A stretch of DNA of 46,948 nucleotides, counting the filler, from Jimgerdemannia flammicorona (Eukaryota), in the NCBI GenBank assembly GCA_003990765.1. It is 2 parts of 2 records of this genome, joined end to end, with 100 filler letters (N's around TTAATTAATTAA, not from the genome) between each part and the next. Parts side by side here need not be neighbours in the genome. Positions count along the whole stretch, not along the records: positions 1 to 23,431 come from RBNJ01001106.1; 1 more part is not named here. The stretch is one strand, 5' to 3'. A program made the translations under genes and the position numbers. Positions 2,759 to 37,360 of the stretch are shown one piece after another (position 1 is the stretch's first letter; each line of letters starts with the position of its first letter). The notes under the pieces are model-generated. The model saw only the letters and a program-made list of their open reading frames with translations. It did no database searches and had not been told where the DNA came from.

Positions 2759-2782
2759 ATTATATATTACTTTTTTATCTAA

Positions 2783-3240
2783 TGTGACAGTATAGCCAAA
2801 TTTGGAAGAAGGAAATAGGGAATAGACACTTGATTGCACCCAGTTCCAAAGTAGTATAGCTTTATAGTTAGCAGTCGCCGATTTCAACATTGTCTAAATT
2901 CTTAGACATTATCCAAATTGAACACCCCGATTTAGTATAGCATTTAGATATTGTCCAAATGTTTCGACAAAGTCCAAATGACTCATTTATTACTTAGCCA
3001 CCCTCTCATAGCTAGCAAACTTGTATAAATAACCCAGTATCTTCAAGTGAATAAACCTCAGATCGAAATAGTTCAAAGCAAAGAGATAGCAAAGGAACTA
3101 GTAAGCCTGTAGGCAGATACACTTCAAACTCACCCACCCTCCCCTGCAACTTCAAGAGACTCCATGAGAGTCAGAACAGTCAAGTTTTCAAGATACAGAA
3201 ATCTGACATACTTTTAAGAGTAAGTGTCCGCTACATTACA
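2783..3240 (+). repeat. 5' LTR, family A
   Basis: TGTGAC...TTACA. Direct repeat of 9022-9479. TATAAATA near 3024 and AATAAA at 3050. Confidence 0.97.
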
Positions 3241-3243
3241 ACT

Positions 3244-3260
3244 TGGTGCCCATTGGCTGG
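3244..3260 (+). promoter_or_regulatory. putative primer-binding site
   Basis: TGGTGCCCATTGGC starts 3 nt after the LTR end and is identical in copy A' (22975). The cognate tRNA is not determined; it may be a deaminated TGGCGCCCA. Confidence 0.7.
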
Positions 3261-3354
3261 TAATTCAAGACGAATCCCTCACTTTCAAGCTGAACAATGA
3301 ACAACCGACACTACCCGAACAACCATATAAACCGAGCCCCAATACCCAGACAAG

Positions 3355-6300
3355 ATGGATATGAGACCACCAGTATTCCACGGATATATCTCAGATGAAT
3401 CAATCATCACCTTCATTGATGATTTCGAGCAGTATGCCGCTGTAAGGACCCTGACAGCAGCACAGCAAGTAGCCCTCATGCCCTTCAGCCTATGAGGTCC
3501 TGCCAGAGTAGCATTCACAGCCGCAACCCATGCAGGAAATGATGCTGATGCTATACTGACAGCACAGAAGATCTGGCTCCGAAATACATATTACACAGAC
3601 AAGATCAAGCAAGCCCTGAAGGATCAGCTCAATACAACATGCCAAGGAATGAGTGAGGATCCAAACACATTCTATACTAGAATTCGATATTAGATAATCC
3701 TTGCAGATTATGCTGCTGCTATCCGAGATCAAGTAGCTGAAGCAACCTTCATGAAAGGAGTCCATCCAGAAATAGCTATGGCTATCTGCTCATCACTAGT
3801 GATTCTGGATCTGCCACAGAAGGTCACCTATGCTCAGTGATACTGGATAGCCAGACACCCACAAGACCATACAATGGAGAGAGTTACAGGAGTCAGAATC
3901 GAGGCACCCAAGGCAACCAGTGTAATCTCCACCACAATGATCAATCGAAACACACCTCAGCCAAAAGCTACAGAGCAGCAAAAGAACAGTGATCCTATGG
4001 AGGAACTTGCCAAAAGGTTTGCCGAAATGACTGCCCACCTGGGAGATGTGGTAAAGGAAATCCAAGGAAGAGATTGCCGCCCTGTTCAGAAGTTTACTGC
4101 CACCTCAGACAAGAAGAAAGGTACCTGCTACAGCTGTGGAGAAGAAGGCCACTACTCCTATGAATGCATGAGTGAAACCAAACGCAAGGCTCAACCAAGC
4201 AATACCACATGAAACAAGGAGCAGGCCAATACAATCACCTTTGAAGAAATCAGAGAATCCGATGAAGAGGAATGGGAGGCCTATCCTGCTCAGACTACCA
4301 AGAAGGATGCTTGCAAAGAACCTTACAAGAGACCGCCAGGAAGACCCAAGAAGAACCCAGTGGAAAAGCAGATGGAAACTGCCACAGAAAGCCAAGCCGA
4401 AGAGATGGACCAAGATATCGAGCTAGAGCAAGCAGTTCAAGATATCATCCAAGGAACCACTCCAGCCAGTGAAGGAGAAAAAGAAAAGAAGCTTCACAAA
4501 ACCAAGACCTTTAAGTATGACATCTTCAAGGATCTCAGCCAACAAAAAGTCAATGTAACCTTCGGCCAGCTGGCAGAAATACCTACATTCAGACAGCAAA
4601 TGAGATTTGGACTTGCAGAAACCACCAAGGAGCAAGGCTGGAAGATAACCAAGGTCAAAAATGTTCAAGAAGACTCAGGAGAAGAGAGTGAAGACAACCG
4701 CAAAACTTCTGCCTATGCAACCTACCAAATCAAAGATAGAATCTTTGAAGCCATTATTGATATGGGAGCAGGAGGATGTCTCCTCAGTAAGAAGGCAGCA
4801 GACCGCCTAGTTTGGGATGTGGAAGAAGCAACTAAGCTAGTATTCGTCACAGCTGATGGCACAAGAGCCACACCTCTGAGAAAGATCTGAGATGTTCCCA
4901 TCAAGATTGGAGGAGCAACAATCCCAGTAGATATAATCGTAACCAATGCCACCAACTATGACATCCTCATCGGCAATCAATGGCTTCACAAAGCCAAGGC
5001 GGTAATCGATCTCAATGCTCAGAAGATGCAGATCACCTACCAGGGACAGAAGATACGAATTCCCATCAATGTCAACAAAGGAGTCCTGCCCAATATGGAG
5101 GAAGAAGAGAGTGAGCAAGAGGAAGCTTATATGGTGACCACTCCAAAGAAGAAGAAAGTTGGATGGATGAGTGAAGAAGAATGGTACAAGAAGATCGCAG
5201 AAGGCTATGCCCCACAAGGAGTCTGTCCTCATGGAATCAAGATGTACTGTATGGAGCATGTCAACGATTGCTATCAGTGCACCATCGGAACCAAGAAGAT
5301 CTACCAAGAAAGAAGGCAGAAAGCTCTCGAAAAACAAATCAGAGAAGAAGAGAAGGAGGAAGATGATGAACTACCAGCCCTCCTGGAGGACAGTGATGAT
5401 GAAGAAGAAATCAAGATCAAGATTCGAAAGATCCACCCTGATGCAGTCTTGCCAGAATACAAGTCAGAAAGCACAGCCGGAATGGACATCGCTACAGTAG
5501 AAGAAACTGTACTAGAACCCCAGACAACCACCCTACTCACAACTGGACTGGAGATGACTATCCCAAAGGATCATGTCGGGATTCTCAAGACAAGAAGTAG
5601 CCTGGTTAGAAGTGAAATCACAATCGAAGAAGGAGTCATTGATTCAGACTATACTGGAGAAATTCTACTCATTGCTAGGAACCACAATTCTACAATTCCA
5701 TTCTCAATTAAGAAGAAGGACCGATTGGCACAGATGTTGATCTTCCCAATCATACAGCCAAGGATCATAGAAGTCAAGAATCTGGAGGAAACGAAAAGAG
5801 GAAAGAAAGGATTCAGATCCACAGGAAGAGAAGTATTTGCCAGCACCAAGATCACTGAACTTGAGCATAAGAAGGAGGAAAACACGAGCAAGCACAGTTA
5901 CATGATTGGAGACAAATTCCCACTCAAAGAGGAACTCAAGAAAATACTCCACAAATTCAAGAATGTCCTTGCCATGGATTTCAAGGATATCAAGAGAAAG
6001 ACCCCACACTACTATCATGAGGTAGATACCGGAGACACTGAACCAATTTATCAGAAGGCAAGACCTGTCCCACCAGCCTACCGAGAATGGCTCAGAGAAG
6101 AAATCAAGCAGATGGAAGAAGCCGGCATCATCAAAGAAGCCAGCAGCCCATGGTCTTCACCAGTTGTACTAGCCCCGAAAAAAGGAAGCAAACCTGGAGA
6201 ATTTGCCCCAAGGCTCTGCGTTGACTACAGAAAACTCAATGCAGTTACCAAGAAGGATCGCCAACCACTGCCACTCATTAGTGACATCCTTATAACACTG

Positions 6301-7329
6301 GGAGATGAAGCACAGTACTACAGCACTTTGGGCTTATACTCAGGATTCCACCAAATCGGACTCACAGATATGGTAAGTGAAAAGTCAGCCTTCATCACCC
6401 CAGACAGAACCTACATCTACCTACGAATGCCATTCAGAATGTGCAATACACCAGCAAGCTTTCAGCGAATGATGAACAAAATCTTCTGCTATGATATGGG
6501 AAGATGGATGATAGTCTATGTCGATGATATAATCATCTACAGCAAGACACCTGAGGAACATCTGCAGCATATACAGCAAATAATGGAGAGACTAAGACAA
6601 TATGACCTTTATATCAAACCCAAGAAGTATAAGTTTGTGGAAATCGAGATCTTCTATCTTGGCCATATTATCAATCGAGACGGAACACACACGGACCCCC
6701 TCAAGATACAAGCAGTAGCAGCATACCCAAGGCCCACCACCATCACAGAAGCTCAAGCCTTCATGGGACTCACCTCCTATTATCGCAGATTTATTAGAGG
6801 ATTCTCCAACATCACAGGTCCAATCTACAAACTCAACAAGAAGGATACCAAGTTCCAGTGGACTGGCAGACAACAAAAAGCATTTGATGAACTCAAGGTC
6901 AGACTGACCCAGGCACCTATCCTCAGACGACCCAATTGGACCCAAGAATTTATCCTTCAGACAGATGCAAGCGCACAAGGACTAGGAGTAGTCCTAGCTC
7001 AAAAAGAAGACAAAAAGGAGTATGTCATTGTATATCTTAGCTGTGGAACCCGAGAAGCTGAAAAAGAATATGAATCCTATAAGTTGGAATGCCTCACAGT
7101 CATCTGGGCCATAGAAAAGTTCCACTACTATCTGGCTGGAAGACACTTCACCATCCAGATGGACCACTCAGCTCTCACCTGGCTACTGACAACTGGACAA
7201 CCCAAAGGAATCTACACCAGATGGATAATGAAGTTACAAGCCTATGATGTAACCATTGTACACCACCCTGGAAGAACAAACTCCAATACAGATGCTCTCT
7301 CACAGACATCTTGAACTACCTCCAACTAA
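3355..7329 (+). pseudogene. Gag-protease-dUTPase-RT-RNase H polyprotein, single frame with premature stops
   Basis: ORF pieces at 3874, 4360 and 5026 share the frame of ATG 3355 (MDMRPPVFHG). Motifs: knuckle CYSCGEEGHYSYEC; protease IIDMGA (D-T-G with ACG>ATG); RT RLCVDYRKLN and VYVDD; RH QTDAS, LECL and DHSAL. Most stops are TGA at inferred Arg (CGA) positions. Confidence 0.95.
5410..5826 (+). CDS. dut: trimeric dUTPase domain between protease and RT
   Basis: All five dUTPase motifs are present: AGMDI, RSSL, GVIDSDYTGEI, DRLAQ and RGKKGF(R)STG. Confidence 0.95.
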
Positions 7330-7339
7330 CAAATCAATC

Positions 7340-8533
7340 ATGAATAAGGAGCTCTACTATGGAATTATCACATACCTGGGATAGCAAAAGATGCCCCAAC
7401 ATCTGGAAGAATGGACATAAACAATTATCAACAGGACATGGAAACAATTTGAAACCAACAGAGAAACACTGAAGAAAGGAAAACTACTGATCATACCAGA
7501 ACACAAGAAGGAGCAAGCGATGAAATCAGTACATGAACTTAGCCATCTAGGAGGAATGAATACATATGATAAGGCAAGAAGAACAATATGGTGGCCAGGG
7601 ATGGAGGAAGATATCAGACAATTCGTCAAGACCTGCGACAAATGCCAGAAACAGAAACAAGACCAATGAAATCAAGCCCCAGGATCAGCACACATAGAAC
7701 CAGTACCATTTGCCCATATAGCAATGGATGTAATCGGCCCTCTACCCTTGACCCTGACTGGTAACCAATACATCATTGTCATTGTAGACCTTTTTACGAA
7801 GTGGATAGAAGCAGGACCCCTCAAGGAAGCCAATGCACAGTCAATCACTGATTTCTTCTACAAGGAAATCATCTGCTGGTTCAAGATCCCAACACAAGTA
7901 ACTACAGATAGAGGAACAGAATTTGTGAACCAGCTCTTTGAGATTCTCTATAAGAAGTACAAGATCCAGCACATTCGGACCACAGCCTATCACCCTCAAG
8001 GAAACAGACAAGTAGAAAGGACCAACAAAACTCTCAAGAATGTTATTGCCAAGATCTGCAATAACTACGAGAACTGGAATCACTATCTGCCAATAGCATT
8101 ATCTGCTCTCCGGGATATCTAATCACAAAGCACCCACTTTACCTCTCGAGAAATGCTGTTCGGAGAAGAATGTTCTCAAGGAACCTTATCATCTAATGGA
8201 GATGCTGTATGGAAACATGTGGACATGGAAATATGGAGACTACACCAAATCAGGAAGAAGGCTGAGGATTACATAACCAAGGTGCAGGCACTACAACAGA
8301 GGAATGTGGAAAAGACCCACAAGCCCTTGGAGATTATCAAGATAGGAGATAAGGTCCTAGTGTATTGGAATATGGTAGAAGCTTCATGGTCATGAAAACT
8401 GGAGTCCAAGTGGGAAGGACCTTACCTTGTGCAAGATATAAAAGGGACCACCTTTTGGCTACGAAAACTCTCAGGCACAATAATCCCCACCACCATTTAC
8501 TGAAACCGACTCAAGAAATATTATGGCCAGTAA
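7340..8533 (+). pseudogene. integrase ORF (HHCC, DDE, GPY module), no chromodomain
   Basis: Starts at ATG 7340 (MNKELY). Motifs: HELSH...CDKC, MDVIGP, TDRGTEF, YHPQGN.QVER, KWEGPY, ending RLKKYYGQ*. The frame differs from RT/RH. Several internal stops. Confidence 0.93.
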
Positions 8534-8984
8534 CAAAAGTACTGCGATGGCACTCAAGATCACTAGTGCTGCCCAAAGAGCCATCGAAAGACAATGGCAC
8601 ACCACCGAGCCTCTGACCATAGAGCCATTCTATGAGGATATTCAGAGTATTGTACAGACTCATCTCTCTCAGATCTCGTACTTTAGAGCCTATCAATATC
8701 ATGCAGAATTTCAAGAGTACTTCAAGCTTAGACAGGTGCTCAATCAGGATCCAGCAAAGACCAAGGAGGACTGGATTGCCGAGTGTCAACTCTCCCACTC
8801 ACAGATCACTATCGCCAAAAGGATCCACAAGTTATTCTGAGAAGATGAACCAGTGATAGACCACCTGAGAGGAGTAACCCCCACCGACTTCAAGAAAGTG
8901 AGAAGACATCATTGGGAAACAGTCATGCAGCAAATTGTACAGTATAAGACCATACAGATGGTTGAAGCCTGGGAGTTTGAATAG
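8523..8984 (+). pseudogene. ORF3, unknown ~153-aa accessory protein (one internal TGA at 8838)
   Basis: ATG overlaps the integrase end. The frame continues past TGA 8838 (EDEPVIDHLRGVTPTDFKKVRRHHWETVMQQI...WEFE*) to just before the PPT. Homologous to family-B ORF3. Confidence 0.8.
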
Positions 8985-9021
8985 ATGCCTCAGGGACGAG
9001 ACCATCCATTCCGGAGGAAGT

Positions 9022-9479
9022 TGTGACAGTACAGCCAAATTTGGAAGAAGGAAATAGGGAATAGACACTTGATTGCACCCAGTCCCAAAGTAGTATAGCT
9101 TTATAGTTAGCAGTCACCAATTTCAACATTGTCTAAATTCTTAGACATTATCCAAATCGAACACCCCGATTTAGTATAGCATTTAGACATTGTCCAAATG
9201 TTATGACAAAGTCCAAATGACTCATTTATTACTTAGCCACCCTCTCATAGCTAGCAAACTTATATAAATAACCCAGTATCTTCAAGTGAATAAACCTTAG
9301 ATCGAAATAGTTCAAAGCAAAGAGATAGCAAAGGAACTAGTAAGCCTGCGGGCAGATATACTTTGAACTCACCCACCCTCCCCTGTAACTTCAAGAGACT
9401 CCACCAGAGTCAGAACAGTCAAGTTTTCAAGATACAGAAATCCAATGTACTTTCAAGAGTAAGCATCCACTACGTTATA
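9022..9479 (+). repeat. 3' LTR, family A (purine tract ggaggaag at 9013-9020)
   Basis: Direct repeat of 2783-3240 with about 28 substitutions and no indels. Terminal CA is mutated to TA. Confidence 0.97.
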
Positions 9480-10763: not shown

Positions 10764-10979
10764 GCAATCACTGCCATGGTGGGGCACTAATAACTGCTAT
10801 TAAAAGTTCACTGGGTATGACACATTTGGACTAAGTTGGTCAGCCACAGTTCGACAACATTTCAGACTGTTTCCTACATATGTAACTCAACTTCTTGAGA
10901 TTGTTGAATTCGACAACTGCAACCATCTGAACAATATGCCTATGCTCAACTGTTTCCTAAACCTCACCTCTATCCTCAA
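10764..10979 (+). pseudogene. internally deleted paralogous fragment of the F-box/LRR gene
   Basis: High DNA similarity to 13560-13870 (ctgccatgg.ggggcactaataactgct; ccacagttcgacaacatttcagactgt; caactgcaaccatctgaacaatatgcc) with two internal deletions. Confidence 0.9.
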
Positions 10980-13117
10980 CACTTATGAAAAGGAGCATAT
11001 CCCTATTAAGGAAGTCGCTGAGCTTGCCCAGTCTGGCATCCCCAGAAGTGAACCCTTCTACACAGAGAAAGACTTCCTCACTACCATGGAGAAGCACCAA
11101 CTCTTCACCAGCCAACTTACTCAATGACTAGATTGCTGCAGAACCAACCACAAATGTGCCAGTTATCATCCTTGTAGGCCACAGGGCTCCAGATTCAAAA
11201 GCCATCCATATCTTTAATGGGAAGAAGGTCCATCTCTTTGATGCATAGAATGACAAAACTACCATATACAGGTTCAAGATTGCTATCTTCGTGGGCCACC
11301 GCTGGCACCATCGAGGCCTTTTACAAGCACCTAGCATCCCCGGGCTCTTTCCTTCATAAGTACACTGCCAACAATGACCAGTTCAGAGGCCTCTTCATCG
11401 TCCTGGCCACCACCTCCAACTGATCAGCATTGTAGCCCACCCATCCTATGCCACACTCTCCGCACACCTGCTCTTTGTCAACAAGCTGAATGGTGCTCAG
11501 TGTCACAAGCAGTCGACATTGTAGTTGTCGCTGGCAAATTTCTTGAGTATAGATAGTTATTTTGAGCATGTATTGCTACCTCATTCATTATAGAAATTTC
11601 ACCTCTCTCTCCATTCTATATACAAAAGACAACTTGTTCGATTGGTTGTTGAATCCTCTAAAGGACATTGTCAACTTTATATCAATTTGCATCTAAAACA
11701 TATATATACGACAATCCAGTAACAAGCATAGGATTCTTTAATCTGTATGTAACTATCAAGGCCAATTATTGGATGATGTTTTTGATCTCATGTCCCTTGA
11801 TCGAGTCCAGGTGGTTATGTGTACATGTATATATTATGTGTTGGAAAGGTGGCTACCATTTAATAAATAGCCCTACAATATAATTATATTGGGTTCTAAA
11901 CTATCAACTATAGTCAACCAACTGGTGTGGCAATAGTCAGGAGAAGTGCAGACAAAATGCGCCTACTTTTGACCGCTGTGCATAGATCATTGAAATCTAT
12001 ACCATTACCAGATTGTACACTTCTAGCTGACATGTAAAGTTCTACCACCTTCTGTCTATCCATCCATAATTTATACTCTCAACCTCTATCTACTGGAATG
12101 CTGTTGCTCAGCTTCACCTTCTAGATGAACAGACTGGACATGAATGCAAGCACAGCGACCACTGAATGCAGTGGAAGTAGCAGCTGATAGCATGATCATC
12201 ATGGAGATGACGAACTGCTGTAGTTTGGCTGTAGGGCTGAAGGTATTCTGCTTGGAGCTAGGAGCGGGGTGATGTAGACAATCGCTGGGATTGCCAGTGA
12301 TGAAGTTTGTAGGGGATGATGCATTCATAAGGAATATTAATGAATTGTGACAGTGCTTCAGGGCCAGGCATCGACTATGGAGATGGGACCGAGGTCTGCA
12401 GCTGCGGTCTGATCTGTGGCAGGGATGAGAACACCAATACCCACATTGACGATGAGGTAGATTCATTGTATTTCTGAACCTCCTTGTACTTATCCCTGTC
12501 CCTGTCCTGTTCTCTATTACAGATCTTCGGTATCAACACTAGTGTGCTGATGACATTTAACACTGAGATTGTGTTCCAGCCTCATCCCTATTACCCATTA
12601 CAATGCAGATAGGAGAGTCCTTCCTCTAATACAAGGCGAGATAGAATACATTGGCAGCCACTTAGTCACGTGAATACCAAATTGGAACATTAGTGACCTA
12701 AAAAACTTTCTTGTCAATTTACATCTCTTTTTACATAATAATCTACAATAGAATGTGGTTGTAAATTTATGAATAAAAGCCAAGAATGGTTTTGCAAAAG
12801 TTGCATTTTCATTACTGTCCACACCATGGAGATCTGACATTTTTCGGATTTTTGCATGGCCGATCAACATTAGTGTTGCTTGTTTTGTAATTGGTGTCAT
12901 CACCAAGTGGCGCCAATGTATCAACAGGGATAAAAAATGCGTGATGTAAAGAGGGACTATATTAAAGTTTTTGTCACCAACTAATCCATCGGCCTTCTAT
13001 CCATCCATTGACTATTATCTCTCCATTGACCATTAACCATTCGTTGATTATCAACCATCAACCATCAACTATAAACTGTTGACTATTATCATTGACAATC
13101 CAATACTCTCCTGAACA

Positions 13118-14284
13118 ATGACTTCCAAGTCTATACTCCATATACACAATGCACACCATCTCGAGAGGGACATTGTTGCACACATTCTTGGCTATATAGA
13201 GATCGACAATAATTATGCTCGCAATATGTATAATTTCGCTCTCATTGAGACTTCATGGCACAGTCCTGCCATAAACTTGCTATATACTCATCTCAACTTT
13301 TCAAGTTATGATGCCATAATCAACTATATCTTCAAGATTGCCCATCATCTGGAGTGCGCCAGTCTTGCTCGCTCGATTTGCCTTTCGGGCCTCATAGGAC
13401 CCATAGACTCAGAAATCCATCTCCGCTACCTCATTCAATCTTGCCAGAACGTCATCTCATTTAAGGTATTGAAGTGCCCTGTGACCTGGGTTACTGATAG
13501 GGTCCTCTTGTCCATGGCAGATCACTGGTCAAGTCTTACCCAACTCACTCTCCACTACTGCAATTTCTGCCATGGCGGGGCACTAATAACTGCTGATGAA
13601 AGTTCACTAAATATGACACATTTGGACCTAACTGGTATTCCTAGAATCAAGGCAAACCAATATTCCGAAATTATCCGAGGTCTTCCCAACCTTCGGTTTC
13701 TTTGTCTGTCCTGTCCAGTCGGTTACCCACAGTTCGACAACATTTCAGACTGTCTTCTCCATACTATCAGTAATATGAATCAGCTTCTTGAGGTTGTTGA
13801 ATTCAACAACTGCAACCATCTGAACAATATGCCCATGCTTGACTGTTTCCTAAACCTCACCACCACTCTGAAGTGTCTTAATATCACAGGGTGCAGCCAA
13901 ATATATGGTATTACTCTTGCTAATATCATTCATGCCTGTAATGCCCTCTGATATGTCAATGTATCTCGCTCCTCATTTGACAACGGGTGCCTTAACTATC
14001 TTTGGACCACCAATGCCTGCCAGCAAATTGAGTAGTTCGCAATGTCCTACTGCTCCGGCATATCATTAGTGTCTTTTCACTATTTTGCCAACATACTCGG
14101 ATTGCATGTGAGTGATGGACACATCAAGAAGTGCATTATATACATCTAGGGAATGAGGTCGAAATTGCCGAAGCACTGCATGAAGGAGATTGAAGAATCT
14201 AACCCTGGGCTTGTAATCGATGTGGATCATGAAGGGTTCATCCTTGAAGAAATCATAGAGTCTATCCTCAGGCCAGTTGTCTGA
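13118..14284 (+). pseudogene. intronless F-box-like / RNI-like LRR protein, probable pseudogene
   Basis: N-terminus LERDIVAHILGY...NFALIETSWHSPAINLLY is F-box-like. LRRs include LTQLTLHYC, MTHLDLTG, LRFLCLS, LEVVEFNNC and LKCLNITGCSQI. The LRR pattern continues in frame past TGA 13949 (L*YVNVS, IE*FAMSYCSGIS). The 3' end is uncertain. Confidence 0.8.
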
Positions 14285-14354
14285 ATAGTGCACCAGGGAT
14301 ATTCGTATTTGCTGGGCAGGTGTCAGATATATTGAGAGGGTGATTAACATTAAC

Positions 14355-17300
14355 AGTGATCACCGAGCATTATGGGAGATTGCCTTTATACTATCAAATT
14401 TGCAAACAAAGCTCATAATGCACACTACAATGGTACACAACATATGGGAGACTCTATGCACCCATCACCTGCAAGTATCCACATTGAATAGATTCTATCT
14501 GAAATCACAGCTATTCAACATAAGAATGAAGCCAAAGGAATGCATCCGTGATTACAGCAATCATGTCGACAATCTGGTAAATGAGGTGAATTCTGTCAGT
14601 ACATCGATAGATTGTATATGTGATGAAGATAAGGTCCTGGTGCTTATAAGGGGCCTTCCTGAGGCATACAATATTGTTGTCACTGCTATGTGGGAAAGCA
14701 GAAGCCTCGTGAACTACACCTACATAATAATAGCCTCATCAATGAGGAAATGTGCCAAGGAAATGGTCCTGCCGAGACGACAAAAGGGTGTTCTACAGGT
14801 CTCGCAGATAAGGCACTGGCAACAAACATGGTCAACAGCAAAAGTGTGGCCAAAAGGGAGAAACTCAAACCCAAAATCAATGGGATAGCAGTTAATCAGG
14901 CAAATTGTTACAACTGTGGCAAGTATGGCCATATGCTATCATAAGGAAAGTGGTGAAAATAAGCATGAAAAAGAAAAGAAAAACTACTGTGGCAAAGGGA
15001 AATATAGCAATGCAAATACCACCGAAACTGATGAAAGTGGTGATCTATTTTTTGCGCAAGATGTCAGTTCCACCACCAATCTCGCCTCCACATCTATGAA
15101 GCCTGGTTGGAAGGATGACAATTTTGGACCAAAAAGTCCCACCAATCCTGCCAGCATAAGTTCTGACAAATTTACCACAAGCACCAATTCCACCATCAAC
15201 AGCATGAGATCTAAGGAAGGATCTATCAATCTGTCATCTACAACTGGTCAGCAAAATATTTTTGGACCGATGAAAAGTAGTGATGACAGCAATCCCAGCG
15301 AATGCGCTAACACAGCCGATAACAATGATGTCTGGCTCATGGATTCAGAAGCCATGCAGCATATGACAGCCCACTGGGAGTAGTTCTCTACATATAAGTC
15401 GTTTGAACACCCGGTGCCTATTAAACTGAGAAATAACAATGTGATATATGCCCAAGGCAAAGGAAATGTTGGAATACATCTCTATGGGAATATCATCGAG
15501 CCTGCAGCCACACTTGGGGACATATTGTATGTGCTAGAGATAGGAAAGAACCTCTTCTCCATAGGTAAGATGATGGCTCGAGGTAATAAGGAGATATATA
15601 TACATCCAAAAGGCACAACCATATATGGCCTGCATGACAATAAACACAACAAGATGTTGATGACAGCCTCGAAGCAAGGCAATCTATATATGATTGACAG
15701 AATGCCGAATGGAGTAAAAGCCTCTACATATATGATGACAACTAAGCCTAATGCATATAATATATAGCATAAATGTTTGGGGCATATCGGCAAATCGAGC
15801 CTTGAAAGAATGATTAAGAATGGTTTGGTGAATAGACTGCCAGCATACATACATCAAGATAACAACTTCTGCGAGGATTGCATGACAAATAAGGCATCGC
15901 GGCATCTATTCAAAGAATAACTGTGGCCCGATGCAAACCCCATCACATTCCAGCAAGAGGTATTTCCTCACGTTCATCGATGATAATATGCATAAGACAT
16001 ATGTATATTCATTATCGGCGAAAAGCAAGGCCTTGGAGAAGTTTAAAGAATTCAAGGTGATTACTGAAAACAAAACAGGATGAAGAATACACACTATATG
16101 CTCAGACAATGATTGGGAATACGTGAATGGCCAATTTAGGCAATTCCTGACGAAATATGGTATATGCCATCAGACAACAGCTCCCTATATGCCTCAGCTA
16201 AATAGCATGACTGAGCAATTTAACTGTATGATTATAGAAATGGCGCATACGATGATCAATGTGGTCAGACTAGGATACTCCTATTGGGGAGAAGCCATGA
16301 ATACAGCAGTATATATCTACAACTGATGCATATCTCAATCACTAAGCAAGGATTCCAGCAACGAGCATTCCAGGGATGCTGATCATACTCCCAAGGAGTT
16401 ATAGAGCAGAACAAAGCTGGATGTATCCCATCTACAGATTTTCAGTTGCGATGCATATATCCTTGATAAAAGCAATATTAATCGGCATAAATTCAAGCCA
16501 AAGATGAGTAAGCATGTTCTTCTAGGGTATAGCAGGACATTGTATAGACTCTGGAATCTACGTATGAGATGCGTGGTGATTTTGCATGATGTACAGTTCA
16601 AAGAAAAAGGAAATGGGTTGGAGACTCATGTGGAAGTACCATTCGAGACCTCTATGTTTCAGCCAGTGCAACAACTGATGCCAACGAAGGCTCCAGCGGC
16701 AAATCAAAATTATTATCAACCACTATATGAGGACGAGCCAACACTCGAAGAATCAAAGATTACCAAGATCAATGATGATGATGAATTCTCTGATGATGAG
16801 GAAATCAAAGAAAAGAGCAAGTAAAAGCCAAAGCATAAGCCCAAGAACAAGACATGTTCCAACTTAGGAAGTTATTGGGATGCGCCAGCAAGCCTAAGGC
16901 AGTAATGTAAGGATTATGTGAGCTACATCGAGCATATGATTGCACATACATGGCCACATCTGGCGAGCCATATATATATGATGAGGCTATGCAAGACCTG
17001 AACAGCAAGAAATGAGAACGTGTGATGGATGAGGAATACGATTTGCTCATCGAAAATGGTACCTGGGACTTGATACCTCTTCTGCCAAAACATCAAGCAA
17101 TCGGATCCAAATAGGGATATAAGATAAAGTGCAATGCCGATGGAAAAGTAGAGTGGTATAAAGCTCGTTTCATAGTCAAGGGTTATTCACAGGATTATGG
17201 TGTAGACTATGACGAGACCTTTTCACCCATATTCAAGCTTACTTTGCTTAGAATACTCCTTGCGATTGGCATGCTATACGACCTGGAAGTCCATCAAATA

Positions 17301-18565
17301 GATATGAAGATGGCATTTCTGAATGGTGATGTAGACACCAAACTATATGTCTGTCAACCCTAAGGATACGAAAATAGTGAAGAATTTGTATGCAAATTAC
17401 GCAAGGGACTATACAGGATCAAACAAGCAGTGTGATTGTGGAATAAGAAAATTGATAAACATCTCCTTGATGAAGGATTCATGTGCTGCAAAGTGGATAA
17501 TTGCGTATACATCTGGTATTATGACAATAGCATAGTATTCATCAGCATATGGGTGGATGATATTATTATCATTGCCAGTAAGAACAGGCTCAATGGAGTA
17601 AAGGAAACCCTATGCCAAAAATTTAAGATGACCGATATGGGCGACACATCCTTCCTTTTGGGAATAGCAATTACACATGACAGGAGCACATGCACCATAT
17701 ACCTCTCGCAAGTAACATACACCAAGGCTATCCTCAAAAGATTTAGTATGAGTGAATGTAAGCCCATTGGCACCCCGATGGAAACTTCCATGAAGTTAAG
17801 GAAGCCCGACACTATGCTCAAACCCACCAATAACATTCTCTATTATCAAGCTGTTGGTTTCCTCATATATTTAATAATTGGAATGAGGCCCAACATATTC
17901 TACACTGCCAATAAGGTAGCGCAGTATTGCTCATGCTATGACAACTCACATTGGATGGCAATCAAGAGGATTTCAGATACTTAAAGAGATCAGCATATTA
18001 TATGCTTACATTGGGTAGCGACATTGGAATGAGTGGGAGCAACAGCAAGAGCAACAGCAATGATAATGGCATCCAGCTATCTGGTACATGTAATGCTGAT
18101 TGGGCCAGAGACTTGGATGATTTCTGGTCTATGACTGGGTATCTCTTTCACATCGGTGCAAACCAAGATAAAGGGTCTGTTATTTCATGGCAAACATGCA
18201 AGCAGAGTTCTGTAGCAACCTCATCAACACAGGTGGAGTATCAGGCATTATCATTGGCAATAAAGGAGGCCATTTGGCTCTGTGAGCTATTAAAAGAACT
18301 CTGCTTCTCTCAGGAACAGTACCCTATGCTGATCAGGCAAGACAACCAATCAATGATAGCACTTGCCAAAAATCCAGTACATAATAGCAGAACGAAATAT
18401 ATCAATATACTCCATTATTTCATTAGAGAATACCTAGAGTGTGGGAGTATACACTTAGAATACATCCCCATGGAGTATATGATTGCTAATTCACTTATGA
18501 AAGCCCTTCCAAAGCCGAAGTTCAAGCTATACACCAATGGAATGGGTCTTACGAGCGGGTCATGA
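14355..18565 (+). pseudogene. copia gag-pol, disrupted
   Basis: Gag (LIRGLPEAYN), knuckle CYNCGKYGH, protease WLMDSEAMQHMT, I*HKCLGH, integrase CGPM...FIDD / PQLNSMTE / WGEA, RT YKARF..KGYSQ..GVDYDETFSP and IWVDDI, RH NADWARD / QDNQS. Contains frameshifts, stops and a short deletion near 15915. Confidence 0.95.
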
Positions 18566-22320: not shown

Positions 22321-22504
22321 ACCACTGCTAACTTTACTGAGCACTGCCCCACTTGGGCTACAAACTCTAGACCAAGCCCTCAGTTTTTTTTTTCCTTTAT
22401 ATTTTAAATTATTAAATAATCCACAAGGCTAATTAACTTATCCATAAATCCAGAACCCATCAAATTTGAGTGGCCCATGCCCAACTAATATTTCAGATAT
22501 ATAT

Positions 22505-23423: not shown

Positions 23424-23431
23424 TTTTTTTT

Positions 23432-27163: not shown

Positions 27164-27194
27164 AGGGAATAATGTTATATGATGATCTCATCTT

Positions 27195-29193: not shown

Positions 29194-30876
29194 GCCTGTC
29201 AGAACTCTTGCTTGATGATATTGTTATAATACCTTTTCTCTAAGTTGTGTCAAAAACTGTTGCTTGAAGTTGGTGTAATGTGAATTGTACCAGAAAAAGG
29301 TGCAATTCCTGGATACCCTCCAATAGCCCATTGATGGACCATCTAATCTCAGCATCATAGTAGCAGATGGAGCCTGAACTCAACTCCTTGAAGAAGTACA
29401 AAATATCATCATCTCTCTTGGACACATTCAGTTCTCTATCTCAAAAGCTATTGTCACTGAAGCTGTCACCTATGACATGATTCTTGGTACTAACTGGATG
29501 AAGGAAATGAATACAGTTGTTGATATTGGTCAACAAGTACTCAAGTTTGACTACCAAGGCAAGAAGTATAGAGTTAAGGTGACCAGCTATGAGTAATCAA
29601 AGAAGAAGAAGAAGATCACTATTCAGAAAGAATATGCCAGCAGTATAGAGTCTACCATAGAGGAGGAAGAAGAATCTGAAGATGGAAATGATCCCAGACT
29701 CAATCCCTGAATTAATCTGGTAGATGACAGACCAGAAGACAATATGTGGGCCAAGAACACCATCCCTATCACTATTGGAGCTATTGTAGGAGAAATCAAA
29801 GGATGCTCTATCTGCCTCAAGAGACACAAGTATCCCGAGCATTCCTCCAAGATCATGGGAACAAGGAAATTGCCTGGCATAGCCTGCCCAGAGTGCAGAA
29901 AGAAGAAGAAATACAGACATATTCCAGAAACACCTACAACTAAAGCTACAGAAGTATAAGCAATTTGGGGTCAAGAATCATCTGAGAAAGAAGAAACTTC
30001 AGACCAAGAAGTTCCTGAACAAGAAGTACCTGAAGAAGAAGAGGTTCCCAAACTCATTCCCTAGGATGACCCTCACTAGACACTACCTGAAGACAATGAC
30101 CCTTGGAATACAGAAGAAGGACCCAGTATAATCACCATTATCCCTAAGAAAGAATCTCACCAAGAAAAGACTTTTTGACTAGGAAGATGTCCACACCAAA
30201 TGGTCTTCCACTCTCTCCAAGACTACTGCTATCAGTGCCATTTACTAGACCACCAGAAGAGACAGAGATCCTAGAGACCAGAACCCCCAAATACAGTTGC
30301 ACAGTCAACTACCTTCCAAGAAGTACCACCAAGTTGCAAAATTAATTCAGAGGACAAGGCCTCTTTACCTAAACAGAAGTATATCCCTTATCTACCCTTC
30401 CACCAACTTATGACTAAGATGGGTACTGATTCCTGAGACAACAAGAGATTAATAACTGAGAACATCATTTCCAAATAATAGGATATTGCAACCATGGAAG
30501 ACACCCAGATTGCCAAGACTGTAGGCATCAGAAGATCCATCTCAGTCATAATGTTGCAATCCACACTTTGAATAGAGGAGATAACAGAAGCCAGATCTGA
30601 AAAAGCCAGGCAAAAAAGCCAGGAAAAAGGACCCTCAAGATCTATGATTTAGGAGAAGACATCCTGACTCTCATCAGACATGCAATCCACCAAGGATGGG
30701 TAGAAGATGCCATCAACTTCATGGAAGCCCTAGACCCTACAGAAAGAAGAAGAATCAACTATCTCTGAGACCCCTCTACTGGAGCCAGATGGCTACACCT
30801 CAACCTCAGAGCCTGAAGGCTGTCTGCTAGTGGAGCTTCAGCTCTAGGACAGCCTGAACTCAGCAAGGATATTGCC

Positions 30877-31281
30877 CAGTATGCCCTGCTACATCCCAAG
30901 GCCAAACCCCTGACCAAAGCCCACCCAGAGGATATAGAATATGATCTTTACAGTCTAGAGGATGAATTCATCAAGTCTGGAAAAACATTCATGATCAGAA
31001 CTGAACTAACTATGTAGCCACCTCAAGGAACTTATATATAATTGACCTCAAGGTCTGGACTTACCAGACAAGGAATAACTGTAGAATGAGGAACCATTGA
31101 CCCAGGATATATAGGTGAAATCAAGGTTATCCTACACAATAGCAGTGCAGAATAGCATCAAATTATTAGAGGACAGAAGATTGCCCAAGCAGTCTTCATG
31201 AAGGTCAGGACCCTGCAATTATAAGAAATGTCCAAACTGACTGAAGGAACAAGACAAGCCAAAGGATTTGGAAGTTCAGAC
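30877..31281 (+). pseudogene. dut: dUTPase domain, family B copy 1
   Basis: LHPKAKPLTKAHPEDIEYDLYS, RSGL, GTIDPGYIGEI, QKIAQ, RQAKGFGSSD, with stops. Confidence 0.9.
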
Positions 31282-31636
31282 AAGAAGGAAGTACATCTCC
31301 TTCAAGTCAACTACCTCAAGAGGAATGTTCCCCAACAAGTATACTGCCAATCAGTCAAACTGCACAAGAATCTCATCCTGGAGCTTAGAGAACAAACCAC
31401 CTTCGAAATCTTTACACCACCTGATCCCAGAAACCTTTTCTTTGAACCCAAGGAAGATATCCCACACCTAGATATAGAAGGACACACTTTTCCTGACAAG
31501 ATGAACCCAGTGTACTCCTGAGCAACCAACCAAAGTTAGGAGACCATCATCTTGCCAAAAGGAACCATCATAGGACATCTGGTGCCTTTTCTCAACCAAA
31601 CTCATAGGGAAGTTTATGAACTAAATTTATCAGGAA

Positions 31637-33101
31637 ATGGAAAAAGGTCCCAGAAGAAAGGAAAGGCCCTCTGCGACCCAGGAGACAGTGAAGCCTTCCA
31701 CCAACATTGGAGAAGAATTGACACCCCAACAACAGCAACAACTAGTAGAACTTCTCAACAAATATCAAGATATCTACACCACCAATTATGACAACCTACC
31801 ATACAATCTATCATATCACCACAGCATAAATACAGGAAATGTAACACCCATCTGGCAGAAACCCTATAGAATACCCTATTACTTAAAAACATTTGAAAAG
31901 GAGCACATTCAAGAACTCTTAGACAATGGAGTTATCTGGCCTTCAACCAGTCCCTGGGCCAGCCCTATACTTATTGTACCAAAGAAAGGAGGATGGAGAC
32001 TCTGTGTAGATTACAGGAAACTCAATTCAGTCACTAAAAAGGATACTTATCCTTTGCCCAGGATTGATGACTTTTTGGATCAGTTACAGAATATCAGATA
32101 CTTCAATAGTATAGATCTTTTCATGGAATTCCATGAGATCTCCATGGACCCAAAAGACATTCAAAAGACAGTCTTCTTGCTTTGGAAAAACTGTTTGAAT
32201 ACCTCTGAATACCTTTTGGACTTTGTAATATACCCCCTACCTTTCAGAGAATGATGAACTCAGTCTATGCCCCCTTGATCCACTACTGCCTAATTGTATA
32301 TATGGATGATTCTAACATCTATTCAGTAAATTTTGAAGAACATCTACACCACCTAGAGGAATTCTTCAAGCTCACTCACAAAAACCACTTGAGACCAGAT
32401 GTAAAGAAATACTATTTTGGAAAACAGAAACTTGAATTTCTTAGATTTATAGTTTTGAAAAAAGGAACCCAGCAGACCCAAAGAAAACTGAAAAGATCAA
32501 CAATTGGCCAGTACCCAAGACCCTGAAGGAAACACTATCATTTCTGATGCTAGTATCCTATTACAGAAGGTTTATCAAAGATTTTGCCCAAATTGCCGCC
32601 AAAATCCAAATCCTTCTCAAGAAAGGAGTGCTATTCCAATAGACAGAATCACAAGAAAAAGCCTTCAGGGAACTCAAGAACTACATGACTACAGCACCAA
32701 TTCTTGTGTACCCCAATTTACAAAAGCCATTCATCTTGTATACAGATGCTTCCAAAGATGGCCTGGGAGCAGTTTTAGCTTAAGAAGAATCTGACCAACA
32801 ATACTATGTGATAGCTTATGCAAGCCAAGCTACCAATCAGCAGCAGATGAACTATGGTAGCACCAAACTGGAATGCCTTGCAGTTATATGAGCAGTCACC
32901 CTGTTCAAGCATTACCTTATCAGAAAAAGATTCACTCTGATCACAGACCATGTAGCCCTCAAATGACTATTCAACTACAAGGAACTCACCAGAATTCTAG
33001 CCCACTGGATCTTTATCCTTTAGGATTACAAAATCACCATCATTCACAAAGCAGGGAAAGCCCACAACAATGTTGATGTACTTTCCTGCCAGCCCCAATA
33101 A
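31637..33101 (+). pseudogene. RT + RNase H, family B copy 1
   Basis: SPWASPILIVPKKGGWRLCVDYRKLN, YPLPRIDD, VYMDD, YTDAS, LECLA, TDH, ending NVDVLSCQPQ*. Confidence 0.93.
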
Positions 33102-34177
33102 ACTAGAAGAAGAGTGTCCCAAGGAACTACACCCTAAAAGAAGCTCCTCAGACCATCAAGGCACAAGAAGATCTCATCTGAAAAGAACATCAGAAAGCTC
33201 ACCAGGGACAGGTGAATATAGAAGAGAAGCTGCAAAAAATACATCAACATTGGTCTAACCTCAGAACACAAGTCCAGGATATATTCAAGAAATGTGACAC
33301 CTGTCAAAAGTACCAAGAAAGGAAGAACTATCAAGCACTATTGCAACCAATTGCACCACCAGACAATATCTTTCAGAGATGGAGAATAGATATAATTGGA
33401 CCTTTACTAGTTATACCAAGAAGAAACAAATATATCCTTATATTTGTGGAACATTTGACCAAGTGGCCCAAGGCTTTCTCAATGGAAATTGCAGATGCCT
33501 TAACCATTGTAGGCCTTCTCCATGGACTCACACTCAGATATAGACCCCCAGAAGAACTCATCTCTGACTGAGGCATATAATTCATCAACAATATAATCAC
33601 AAGTTATGCCTGAATTCACAAGATCCACCTCAAATAGACCACATCATACCACCCTCAGACCAATGGCATGACAGAGAGAATGAACCAAACCATCAAGAAA
33701 AGACTTGCCTGAGTTAATCCTACCAATTGGAACCTCTGCTTACCTGAGATCCTATGGGAAATTCAGAATACCTCTGCTGCCTCTACCAAACAAAAGCCAT
33801 TTGAAATGATGTTTGTCAAGAAAACCAGAACTACTGACTATGAGAATCTCGGAAATCTCCTCAAGAAGACAGAACAGTTACGTAATCAAGCCCAAGGTCA
33901 GATTATCAAAGCCCAAGAAAGACAAAAGAAGTATTATAACTAGAAACAGAAGGATCAGGAGATCAAGATTGGAGATCAAGTACTAGTTTGGAGAAGTATG
34001 ATTGAAACAAATTTTGCTGTCAAATTGGAACCCAAATGGGAAGAATCTTATCTTATATACAATATCAGAGAAACCAGCATCTATTTAAGAAGTATAGATG
34101 AATGAACCCTGAAGACACTAGTACACATCAATCACCTCAAGATATACCTTTTCCCACATCATGAATTAAGGAGTTGA
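33098..34177 (+). pseudogene. integrase, family B copy 1
   Basis: HQKAH...CDTC, IDIIGP, ISD, YHPQTNGMTER, KLEPKWE, ending HINHLKIYL...*. No chromodomain. Confidence 0.9.
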
Positions 34178-34676
34178 CAACCACCTTTGAACCCTTGTCC
34201 TCAGCTCATTTCAATCACTGCCAGTTCCCCTATCCCAATTCTGAGAAATCAATGGGAATACTCTCCAGAAGATCCAGATTCATCAAGAGAATCTTGTCTT
34301 GACCAGATGATTACTACAAGTCCACCAACTCCAGGCCCATTATGCAATTGGAGAACAATTGCAGAACCTCTCAGTCCTAGAACAAACATATATCCAAAGT
34401 ACTACAAGACTATCAAGAAGAGATATCACTGCTATAGACAGGCTCTATACTCTTTACAAATATAACTCTGCAGCCTTATTACAAGCACAATTCTCCTGAT
34501 AGGATGCATATAGAATAAACTTGGCCACCTACCTGAGCATCATCAATGCTATCAAAATCCTATTTCCAGAAGAAGAAGAAGAATCCTTAGAATGGAGCAA
34601 CCATGGTACAGATGATGAAGATGATGGAACAGGTATTAATACAGAAGATACTTACTCATACTGAAATGATGACTAA
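34161..34676 (+). pseudogene. ORF3, family B copy 1 (~171 codons, acidic tail)
   Basis: MN*GVDNHL*TLVLSSFQSLPVP...QAHYAIGEQLQ...LSRRDITAIDRLYTLY...EEEEE...DDEDD. No frameshift. The frame is retained in the copies at 37122 and 45986. Confidence 0.75.
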
Positions 34677-34716: not shown

Positions 34717-36117
34717 TGTGACAAACCAGAATATACCACCCAAATTACAACTTAGCCAGATAATGTGAACATATAGCAACCAGTAACTATTGCTGCAGAA
34801 AGCTATATAAATAGCCAGACTACCAGATAAGATATACCTGTATAAGACCTACATATCTGTACAAGACCTACACACCTATGTAAGACCTACACACCTATGC
34901 AAGACCTACACACTTACTATAGATAGTAATCTATAGTTAGCCATATAGCAACCAGATAGCAACCATAATATATAAATTACCCCAGAGACAAGAGTGAATA
35001 AACCTTAGTCTGAATTAAAGTGCAAACCAAAGAAGCCTCTAAAGATTGAGCATTGGTCCCCTTATTTCTACTTCAGTTTACTTTTCAATATAAAGCTTGA
35101 AGATTTTGCCATTAAGTTTAAGAAAGAACTTTGCCACCTTTGGAATTATTGGTACACTTGCCAGATAAGCCTAAAGAAATCAAGTTTCTGCCATCTAAGA
35201 GAAAGCCATTTTGCTCAAGCCAGTTTCTGATACAACTTTACAGTAATTCATTTACACTAATGAAGCCAGTCTTTGACACAACTTTTCCAAGAGACCCTTT
35301 TCCAAAAGCTGCCAGCATGTTTCCCAGTTGAAGCCACCATTTTCAAGTTTTCTATATTCCCAAAGAACTCTGCTGATTCAGGAAGAATCTGTGCCAATGT
35401 ATTCCCAGAAGAGTCTGCTGATTCAGAAAGAATCCATGCCATCCAAGTAGTATTCCCAGTTGAAGCCGCCAATTCAGAAGAATCCACACTATCCAAGTTA
35501 TTTTTCAGAGAGCCACTAATTTAGGAAGAATCTGCAACATCCGAGTTACCTAAGCTACCCGAGTTATTAAATTATCCACCTCCCATGACACCTGAGTTAT
35601 CCAAGTAATCTGAGTTATCCACTGCCAAGTTATCTATTGTTCCCAGTGAGCTAATTCAGAGGAAGCTGTACCAAACTGAGTCATCTACCAGAAACTGCAT
35701 ACTTTTGGAGATTGTCACACTATACAGAGATTGTCATACTAAGATTATCATACAGAAATTGCATAAGGAGAACTGCTAAATTGCCAGACCATCATGCATA
35801 AAGAACTCATGCTATACAAGATTGTCATACATAGAGATCATCACACTATACATGAAATTCTACCAATTCTCAGATTGACCCAATAAGGAAACCCATTTAT
35901 ACAAATTGCTGCTATACCCAGAGAATCATCCCAATTAGGAAATCAATATACAAATTGCTTGCAGATATTCAGCTTTGACTATTATACCACTAAACACCAA
36001 GGACCTCAGGAATCTTAGAATATTTTGTTACTTTTTGACAAAGTAACTGGGGGCTCAAGCCAAACTACATCAATCCCCAACCTTGTAATTTGCCTCCATT
36101 GAGTCAGGCATATTACA
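34717..36117 (+). repeat. family-B 3' LTR (1401 bp)
   Basis: TGTGAC...TTACA. Homologous to 37361-38807. AATAAA at 34997. Confidence 0.9.
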
Positions 36118-37360
36118 CTAGTAAAGCACAAGAAGACCTCATCTAATAAAAATACCAGAAAGTCTACCAAGGACAGACAAATATAGAAGAAAAGCTATAA
36201 ATAATATATCAATATCAGTCTAATCTCAAAATACAAATTAGAGATATACTTAAGAAATGTAATATCTATCAGAAGTATTAAGAAAAGAAGAACTATCAAG
36301 TACTACTATAACCAATCGCACTATCAATCCACATCTTCCAGAGATGTCAAGTTGATATTATTAGACCTTTATCAGTTAAACTAAAAGGAAATAAATATTT
36401 CTTAATATTTATAGAATATCTAACCAAATGGTCTGAAGTTTTCCCAATAGAACTCACTGATGCTCTAACTATTATTAGCCTCCTTTATAGCCTCACACTT
36501 AGATATAGATACTCAGAAGAACTTATCTCTAACTGAGACATAGAATTTATCAATAATATAATTATAAGTTATACTTAAATTCACATAATCTATCTGAAAT
36601 AGACTATATTATACTATTCTCAAATCAATGGTACAATAGAATGAATAAATCAGACCATCAACAAAGAACTTATCTAAGTTAATTCTATTAATTAGAAACT
36701 CTACTTATCTGAAATCCTATGGAAAATTTAGTACACCCCTGCTATCTTTATCAAATAGAAGCTATTTGAGATAATGTTTGTTAAAAAAAACCAGAACTAA
36801 TGATTATGAGAACCTTGGAGATCTCTCTAAAAAGATAAACAATTATATAATCAAGTTTGAGCTCAGATAATCAAGGTCCAGAAAAGACAAAAGAAGTACT
36901 ATATATAACTAAAAACAAAAAAAAAACAGAAGATTAAGATTAATAATCAAGTTTTATTTAGAGAAGCATAATTGAATTCAAATTTACTACTAAATTAGAG
37001 CCTAAATAAGAAGAACCTAATTTATTAGAGAAATTAGTATCTATATAAAAAATATAGATAGATGAATTTTGAGAATACTAGTATATATTAATTATCTTAA
37101 GATATATCTTCTCTCAATATAATAAACCAGATAATTGACCACTACCTCTAGACTCTTATTCTCAGTTCTTTTCAGATCCTTTCAATTCCACTACCATAGT
37201 TTCAAGAGATTTAAGGAAGCCATGACCAACAAGTCTAAAAACTTCAGAAGAACCTTACTATTGTCTAATATCTACTACAGATTTACTAACTAGAGATCTA
37301 CTATATAATTAGACAACAATTGCAAGACCTCTCAGTATCAAACTATATGTACCTATATAT
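36118..37360 (+). pseudogene. older family-B copy: integrase + ORF3 N-part, heavily mutated
   Basis: Collinear with 33153-34390. Bounded on both sides by LTRs of younger family-B insertions. Confidence 0.88.

Follow-up and report, generated by a model that had tools for sequence, protein, structure and literature searches.

A conserved third gene between integrase and the polypurine tract in two Ty3/gypsy families of Jimgerdemannia flammicorona

The locus and element A

A stretch of 46,948 nucleotides (nt) from Jimgerdemannia flammicorona (assembly GCA_003990765.1), hereafter the window, consists of parts of two records joined by 100 filler letters, with positions 1 to 23,431 derived from RBNJ01001106.1. 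It carries copies of two families of Ty3/gypsy elements, designated A and B, in which a third open reading frame (ORF3) follows the integrase (IN) gene. An original prediction, made from this DNA alone, described ORF3 as a conserved gene for a small helical protein, located in the env position of both families, a description now borne out by intact relatives of the protein and, with the qualification due to models, by all-helical structure predictions. Comparison of these elements with one another and with a related metagenome contig (L001) shows the order gag-protease (PR)-dUTPase-reverse transcriptase (RT)-RNase H (RH)-IN-ORF3-polypurine tract (PPT)-long terminal repeat (LTR) for this clade, with ORF3 coding, conserved and situated between integrase and PPT. 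The LTRs of element A, a retrotransposon of the LTR type, lie at 2783-3238 and 9022-9477, and the features of the element are as follows.

2783..3238, + strand: 5' LTR of element A as far as it aligns with its 3' counterpart, with the start TGTGAC; blastn of the 5' against the 3' region, 456 nt, 94% identity
3517..7305, + strand: gag-PR-dUTPase-RT-RNaseH; 68% identical over 1279 aa to the L001 polyprotein (tblastn); Pfam RVT_1 and RT_RNaseH
~5446-5826, + strand: dUTPase domain (Pfam PF00692, E 4.5e-26), placed after protease and before RT
7262..8533, + strand: integrase, ending ...RLKKYYGQ, stop TAA 8531-8533; Pfam rve, E 4.1e-13; translation; tblastn
8523..8984, + strand: ORF3-A, of 153 codons, from its own ATG (A at -3, G at +4) to the stop TAG 8982-8984; intact relatives, and nonsynonymous versus synonymous differences against L001
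8838..8840, + strand: sole in-frame TGA breaking ORF3-A, at codon 106, where relatives have a residue
9013..9021, + strand (tract proper 9013-9020): PPT GGAGGAAG(T), adjoining the 3' LTR; same tract in L001
9022..9477, + strand: 3' LTR, 94% identical to the 5' LTR (blastn)

ORF3-A ends 37 nt ahead of the 3' LTR. The integrase of this copy contains several in-frame stops, and the copy reads T at many positions where every contig from three runs has C, for instance at 8405 (40 contigs), 8522 and 8711. Transitions prevail in all differences between copies, a pattern consistent with C-to-T decay of the window copy. A third, partial A-family copy lies at 22498-23430; it comprises an LTR and the first ~60 gag codons, with 87% identity to 2776-3690, and then ends.

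ORF3-A as a conserved coding gene

A word-indexed search with ORF3-A yielded ten candidates, eight of which matched at E<=0.01 with 63-77% identity. A cluster look-up added P0011 and P0016 to P0001, giving three full-length intact relatives of 153 aa, and the identity of full-length intact relatives spans 63-85%. The family appears to be narrow, since an exhaustive phmmer search over 1.84 billion representatives matched just three clusters. Genomic context could be checked for one relative, on contig L001, where an open 1274-aa gag-PR-dUTPase-RT-RH frame is followed by integrase and then by an intact 153-codon ORF3 (L001:5001-5462) that stops just short of the same PPT and TGTGAC LTR start as in element A.

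Over 152 codons, ORF3-A of the window and its L001 counterpart differ at a proportion of 0.203 of nonsynonymous sites (pN) and 0.805 of synonymous sites (pS, saturated), with no indels; identity at the three codon positions is 78, 81 and 42%, and pN/pS exceeds 1 when this stretch is read in either of the other frames. Between the same two elements pN is 0.184 for gag and 0.153 for RT-RH, which places the conservation of ORF3 on a par with that of gag (0.20 vs 0.18). As judged from this comparison, ORF3-A is a coding gene under purifying selection, because pN of 0.20 stands against pS of 0.81 and the frame is free of indels. A ratio near 1 would be expected if ORF3 were not a gene; the ratio obtained is ~0.25, for one DNA pair with CpG sites included. 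That reliance on a single pair, together with saturated synonymous divergence, counts against the strength of the selection argument. No further DNA copies of A relatives were obtained from viral contigs (queries A6 and A4) or genome contigs (query A4).

Family B and its ORF3 copies

Family B is represented by one element with a long ORF3 (B1) and two further copies, B2 and B3, with the following features.

29309..34177, + strand: element B1 pol (PR, dUTPase, RT, RNaseH, integrase), heavily decayed, integrase stop TGA 34175-34177; tblastn; Pfam RVT_1, RT_RNaseH and rve
~30907-31278, + strand: B1 dUTPase domain (Pfam PF00692, E 6e-22), placed after protease and before RT
34161..34676, + strand: ORF3-B1, 171 codons plus stop, 7 internal stops; intact relatives P0017, P0018 and P0021; B-family hidden Markov model (HMM), 252 bits over 34161-34673
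34717..34911, + strand: start of the B1 3' LTR (TGTGAC), with 19-bp tandem boxes at 34836-34911; sequence
37125..37355, + strand: ORF3-B3, N-terminal part only (~77 codons), ATG lost, decayed; B-family HMM, 64 bits
45986..46201, + strand: ORF3-B2, first 72 codons, 2 stops, match to B1 ending at ~46194; B-family HMM, 97.5 bits

When ORF3-B1 was read through its stops as X, 6 relatives at E<=10 were found among 34 candidates. Three B relatives are full-length and intact, namely P0017 (171 aa, 77% identity), P0018 (172 aa) and P0021 (169 aa, 48% identity), and all share the acidic end ...DDGxGIDAEDAYPYWDDD. Since these relatives continue to ...YWDDD, the TGA at 34662 is not the end of ORF3-B1; the real end is the TAA at 34674-34676, 40 nt ahead of the LTR at 34717. 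With this correction to B1, the original statement that ORF3 runs up to the PPT holds in both families, and the A and B peptides quoted with it are exact in the sequence.

The copies B1 and B2 retain a coding pattern over their first 72 codons, with identities of 55/72, 58/72 and 39/72 at the three codon positions, and differ by 49 transitions and 15 transversions. The claim that three B copies keep the frame is accurate for these 72 codons, which show no indels among B1, B2 and B3; the copies nevertheless carry 2-6 stops each, and both B2 (45986-) and B3 (37122-) diverge or are cut off beyond the equivalent of ~34375 in B1. For this reason the LS-x3-IT-x3-R motif, which the prediction rightly placed in A and B1, is present among the B copies in B1 only.

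Two structural details of the B copies may be added. In B1, ~2.1 kb separate the protease match (29309-29593) from the RT match (31742 onward), far more than in A. Copy B3 (36117-38807) starts in the integrase region right after the B1 3' LTR and has its own LTR-like end, and thus looks like a 5'-truncated or nested B element.

Common origin of the two versions

The two families share the order PR-dUTPase-RT-RH-IN-ORF3, and L001 likewise has the dUTPase at this place. In A and B the LTR ends agree (TGTGAC), the sequences just ahead of the PPT are alike, and the RT-RH regions are 30-46% identical (tblastn). How clearly their ORF3s point to one common gene depends strongly on the level at which they are compared. 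At the level of single sequences, a Smith-Waterman alignment of the window copies ORF3-A and ORF3-B1 scored 35, a value equalled by 240/2000 and 335/2000 shuffles (p ~0.12-0.17). This result goes against the original prediction, which had accepted an alignment no better than shuffled controls as evidence against kinship, but it is overturned by the profile tests that include intact relatives. The similarity reaches significance only with profiles that draw on intact relatives. An A profile gave weak support on B1 (8.9 bits, exceeded by 3/3000 B1 shuffles) and no signal on the first 78 codons of B2 (0.8 bits).

Profile-profile and profile-protein comparisons are more decisive. Alignment of the A and B family alignments with hhalign gave P 0.0017, or 0.0011 once a stray N-terminal extension was trimmed; none of 221 column-shuffled controls reached the score of 27.2 (maximum 21.0), and the reversed control scored 10.1. 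Addition of the divergent B members P0021, P0024 and P0027 lowered P to 2.5e-4 and gave a probability of 43%. The B-family HMM matched all seven A proteins (7/7) at 11.0-21.7 bits (single-comparison E 7.7e-9 to 1.4e-5), with colinear alignments of up to 86 columns (B 23-108 vs A 29-114), and no scored shuffle of the L001 ORF3, P0001 or P0016 reached the observed score (2000 made for each of the three proteins, of which 1909, 1922 and 1918 gave scores). In a six-frame HMM scan of the window and L001, the best non-self match of each family was the ORF3 of the other, in the right frame and colinear; the B HMM, for example, matched L001:5181-5348 at E 1.9e-5.

Several observations weigh against common descent. 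The hhalign probability is just 15-43%, the reciprocal search of B proteins with the A HMM yields less (4.5-11.6 bits; the scores of P0024, P0017 and P0021 are equalled by 0, 3 and 17 shuffles, respectively), and no third family bridging A and B was found, as 18/18 hits belong to A or B. It may be argued from such figures that the two ORF3s are unrelated genes gained independently at the same position and that their profile similarity reflects convergence of two helical proteins. Identity of ~19-21% over 52-53 aligned columns, the non-significant pairwise test of the window copies and an hhalign probability below 50% would all suit independent gain, and the shuffled controls do not preserve helical periodicity. 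Convergence is nonetheless improbable in the face of seven A proteins that beat all shuffles over up to 86 colinear columns, of two families that are each other's best non-self matches in an unbiased scan, and of a score that grows as diversity is added; element architecture, start arrangement and an acidic, Trp-containing C-terminus are also common to both. ORF3-A and ORF3-B are therefore very probably homologous as far as profile comparison can tell, and descent of both versions from one ancestral accessory gene is strongly supported at the sequence level. An identity of ~20% for the faster-evolving ORF3 fits the RT-RH distance between the two families.

A duplication of gag was also considered as the origin of ORF3 and was rejected, the six-frame HMM scan having found no other ORF3-like part in the element.

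Start codon and mode of expression

The ATG of ORF3 overlaps the integrase stop in the +1 frame, by 11 nt in A (TAA 8531-8533) and by 17 nt in B1 (ATG at 34161, stop at 34175-34177), exactly as first described, and the overlap in L001 is 44 nt. The relatives of A share this ATG, as do B1, B2 and the relatives of B; an A stands at -3 in both families, and a G at +4 in family A. In A, L001 and B1 the frame of ORF3 closes 13 codons ahead of its ATG. For P0020 and P0024, longer N-termini in the source sequences map to another upstream frame than ORF3 has in B1, which implies that the frame relation between ORF3 and integrase is not fixed.

Ty3 uses programmed +1 frameshifting between GAG3 and POL3. 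By analogy, ORF3 could be a C-terminal extension of integrase made by programmed +1 ribosomal frameshifting and not a separate gene, a possibility in line with its being +1 to integrase, and overlapping it, in window A, L001, B1 and B2 alike. Such a fusion seems unlikely, however, given a start codon with A at -3 conserved in both families, a frame closed shortly upstream of it in three elements, an overlap whose length is not conserved, and the N-terminal extensions of P0020 and P0024 in a frame different from that of B1. Because the ATG is conserved, the frame is closed upstream, the overlap is variable and the frame relation is not fixed, a separate cistron is favoured over a frameshift fusion, and ORF3 would probably be translated from its own conserved ATG overlapping the integrase stop. 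It may be made from a subgenomic or spliced RNA, or by re-initiation of ribosomes terminating at the integrase stop.

A reservation about expression is that no ORF3 transcript, splice junction or protein was seen in the available runs, which consist of contigs only and are uninformative on ORF3 transcription; the single RNA-library run among the four gave one 188-nt contig, located in integrase (8087-8274). Apart from one opposite-strand artefact, no joints on the element occur among the contigs of the four runs.

Protein features and fold

ORF3 encodes a soluble protein of 153-172 aa with a grand average of hydropathy (GRAVY) of about -0.6. The view that it is neither Env nor a chromodomain is upheld: no membrane-like segment is present, the highest Kyte-Doolittle mean over 19 residues being 0.17-1.36 in four intact relatives, its length is 153-172 aa, no Chromo profile of Pfam matches, and the AlphaFold2 models of both families are all-helical. 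Predicted helices span residues 61-75, 81-88 and 92-113 in A and 72-82 and 86-99 in B. The block conserved between A and B reads ...Q-x-Y-[FY]-x-[LI]-G-[QE]-x-L..., followed by [WY]-I...[LI]-[ST]-x(5-6)-A-x-R-[IL]-[YH]-x-L-[FY]-[KR]-x(4)-A-L; in the A model it corresponds to the short helix 81-88, a three-residue turn and the long helix 92-113, a predicted arrangement like a helix-turn-helix. In B a basic core (pI 9.6) is followed by a strongly acidic tail (pI 4.05). The C-terminal ends, acidic and Trp-containing in both families, read ...DAEDAYPYWDDD in B and ...EAWEFE in A.

Assignment of ORF3 to any known class meets with several difficulties. Mean predicted local distance difference test (pLDDT) values of 53.3 and 54.6 are too low for fold assignment and leave the helix-turn-helix geometry unreliable, and the helix boundaries above come from these same models (pLDDT 53-55). 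Pfam gives no family at E up to 10 for 16 A and 7 B members, apart from HTH_Tnp_Mu_2 in 4/16 A members (best E 0.031), which covers residues 4-63 and hence lies outside the helix-turn-helix-like motif. A sequence-profile search of the Protein Data Bank (PDB) returned chance-level rows only (asparaginase, tissue factor). Foldseek likewise gave best E values of 0.57 and 2.0 against PDB and 1.0 against the BFVD viral models; the wide VIA-align comparison peaked at Z 5.3 and 5.5, under the noise level for helical models, and ESM Atlas offered unnamed or unrelated clusters only, its model of P0017 reaching a TM score of <=0.37 to anything. Accordingly, searches of Pfam and PDB and with Foldseek and VIA-align linked ORF3 to no DNA-binding family, to no viral regulator and to no known fold, nor did Pfam or PDB return the characterised transposable-element domain that would have spoken against a new gene.

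Relation to known accessory genes

Sense-strand additional ORFs (aORFs) located between pol and the 3' LTR form a recognised class in LTR retrotransposons (PMC7264820). ORF3 resembles them in lying between integrase and the PPT/3' LTR on the sense strand in A, B1 and L001, and in occurring in many copies from separate contigs with conservation like that of other element proteins (pN 0.20 vs 0.18 for gag). The sense aORFs described so far mostly encode Env-like membrane proteins of Athila-type elements in plants (PMC7264820), whereas ORF3 encodes a soluble helical protein of 153-172 aa in dUTPase-bearing elements and matches no family. CERV of Cer1, a Ty3/gypsy element of C. elegans, is an example of an accessory gene on which the expression or export of genomic RNA can depend (PMC10309623). 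Like CERV, ORF3 would be an accessory protein beyond gag-pol in a gypsy-type element, with a regulatory and not an envelope role, although for ORF3 this role is proposed from its features; CERV is produced from a spliced mRNA and requires phosphorylation (PMC10309623).

The one named fungal example found is brtn of the Boty-like elements of Botrytis cinerea, an extra gene of unknown function between pol and the 3' LTR of a fungal gypsy element (PMC7264820; 10.1101/2021.04.13.439636). Its orientation is antisense to gag-pol (PMC7264820); ORF3, by contrast, lies on the gag-pol strand and overlaps the integrase stop. The chromodomain of chromovirus integrases occupies the same place, at the 3' coding end just after the GPY/F module (PMC2864245), but ORF3 differs in being presumably a separate cistron, in another frame, all-helical and without a Chromo profile match. 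In the same survey of fungal gypsy elements, dUTPase domains are reported at varying positions in basidiomycete and ascomycete elements, and one figure legend lists an 'additional ORF with unknown function' (PMC2864245). No description of ORF3 was found by full-text literature search; Repbase, Dfam and the supplements of PMC2864245 lay outside the scope of that search, and prior annotation there is possible. ORF3 thus fits the aORF category, and what is new is a protein family not assigned to any known one, in sense orientation and with a start overlapping the integrase stop.

Other features of the window

A Ty1/copia-type element occupies 14289-18565 (+), with Pfam matches to Retrotran_gag_2, SH3_retrovirus and RVT_2, and is broken by stops. 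The stretch 24000-29000 has 51-55% G+C and a GC skew of -0.36 to -0.52, against 27-45% G+C in the rest of the window, and its ORFs at 25289-27007 (-) include an RVT_1 reverse transcriptase fragment (E 1.8e-9); it probably represents the insertion of a non-LTR retrotransposon close to the 5' part of B1. A leucine-rich, open frame of 278 codons at 13115-13951 (+) has an F-box/LRR-like look without a Pfam match at E<=0.001, and a partial repeat (10880-10979 / 13773-13872) is associated with it. This frame may be the only host gene in the window.

Possible functions of ORF3

Taken together, the explanation held somewhat better than even is that ORF3 is a real third gene of a dUTPase-bearing Ty3/gypsy clade, inherited by A and B from one ancestral gene, expressed as a separate cistron and acting in trans as a regulator. 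The last of these parts is the most tentative. As a soluble all-helical trans-acting regulator of the element, ORF3 could bind nucleic acid through a neutral-to-basic core with the motif [LI][ST]-x5-6-A-x-R-[IL]-[YH]-x-L-[FY]-[KR], and its acidic, Trp-containing C-terminus might serve as an activation or partner-binding tail. A regulator is preferred because transcriptional activators are built in this way, with a basic nucleic-acid-binding core and an aromatic, acidic tail; it ranks ahead of a cofactor of integrase or Gag and of a counter-silencing factor, all three being conjectural. Targets of the core may include element RNA or the repeated 18-19-bp boxes found in U3 of all three LTRs examined (3/3: window A, B1 and L001), ~100-120 nt in and of a different sequence in each:

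window 9120-9218: U3 boxes of element A, dispersed
window 34836-34911: U3 boxes of B1, tandem
L001 5602-5673: U3 boxes of L001, tandem

From their sequence and placement, these boxes are candidate enhancer or binding sites. Foamy-virus Tas/Bel1, encoded 3' of pol and acting on its own LTR, combines a nucleic-acid-binding part with a subsequent acidic C-terminal activation part. The likeness of ORF3 to this layout is one of concept only, as no similarity in sequence or fold was found (best Foldseek E vs viral models 1.0), and membership is not claimed. In its most specific and rather speculative form, the regulator would be a sequence-specific transactivator whose core binds the U3 boxes of its own LTR while the acidic Trp tail recruits the transcription machinery. 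If so, a Tas/Tax-like positive feedback loop would exist in a non-retroviral LTR retrotransposon, and box sequence and recognition helix should co-vary between subfamilies; window A, L001 and B differ in both.

A second, less likely possibility is that ORF3 acts in integration or assembly, as a cofactor that binds integrase or Gag, for instance to target integration without a chromodomain or to be itself packaged into particles, with the acidic Trp tail as the docking element. Its place is that of the chromodomain in chromoviruses, neither family has a chromodomain, it is conserved as well as gag, and the protein is small and helical, its tail being charged. Yet the core motif would seem to resemble a nucleic-acid-binding helix pair more than a docking module. 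Complex prediction for the C-terminal part of the L001 integrase with the L001 ORF3 gave a score of 0.00 and no verdict, which speaks neither for nor against binding.

Less probable again is an antagonist of host genome defence, directed at RNA silencing or at DNA methylation and deamination and kept for escape from silencing. The dominance of transition-type changes in the window copies (49 vs 15 transversions between B1 and B2, and likewise in the differences from contigs) suggests that these elements are under strong host attack, and lineage-restricted, fast-evolving orphan proteins, here with three clusters among 1.84 billion, are typical of counter-defence. A pN/pS of ~0.25, on the other hand, denotes ordinary purifying selection without an arms-race signature, and Pfam, PDB sequence and BFVD searches revealed no similarity to any known suppressor.

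Implications

LTR retrotransposons are usually held to need gag and pol alone, whereas here a third gene has been kept across two families that share ~30-46% RT-RNaseH identity. Its retention under purifying selection in both suggests that the element depends on an extra function. Should that function consist in self-activation, in RNA export, in targeting or in counter-silencing, the persistence of these elements in the face of heavy mutational attack would be explained, and a new protein family would join the few known accessory genes of retrotransposons. With the two ORF3 profiles, the clade as a whole can be sought directly in fungal genomes.

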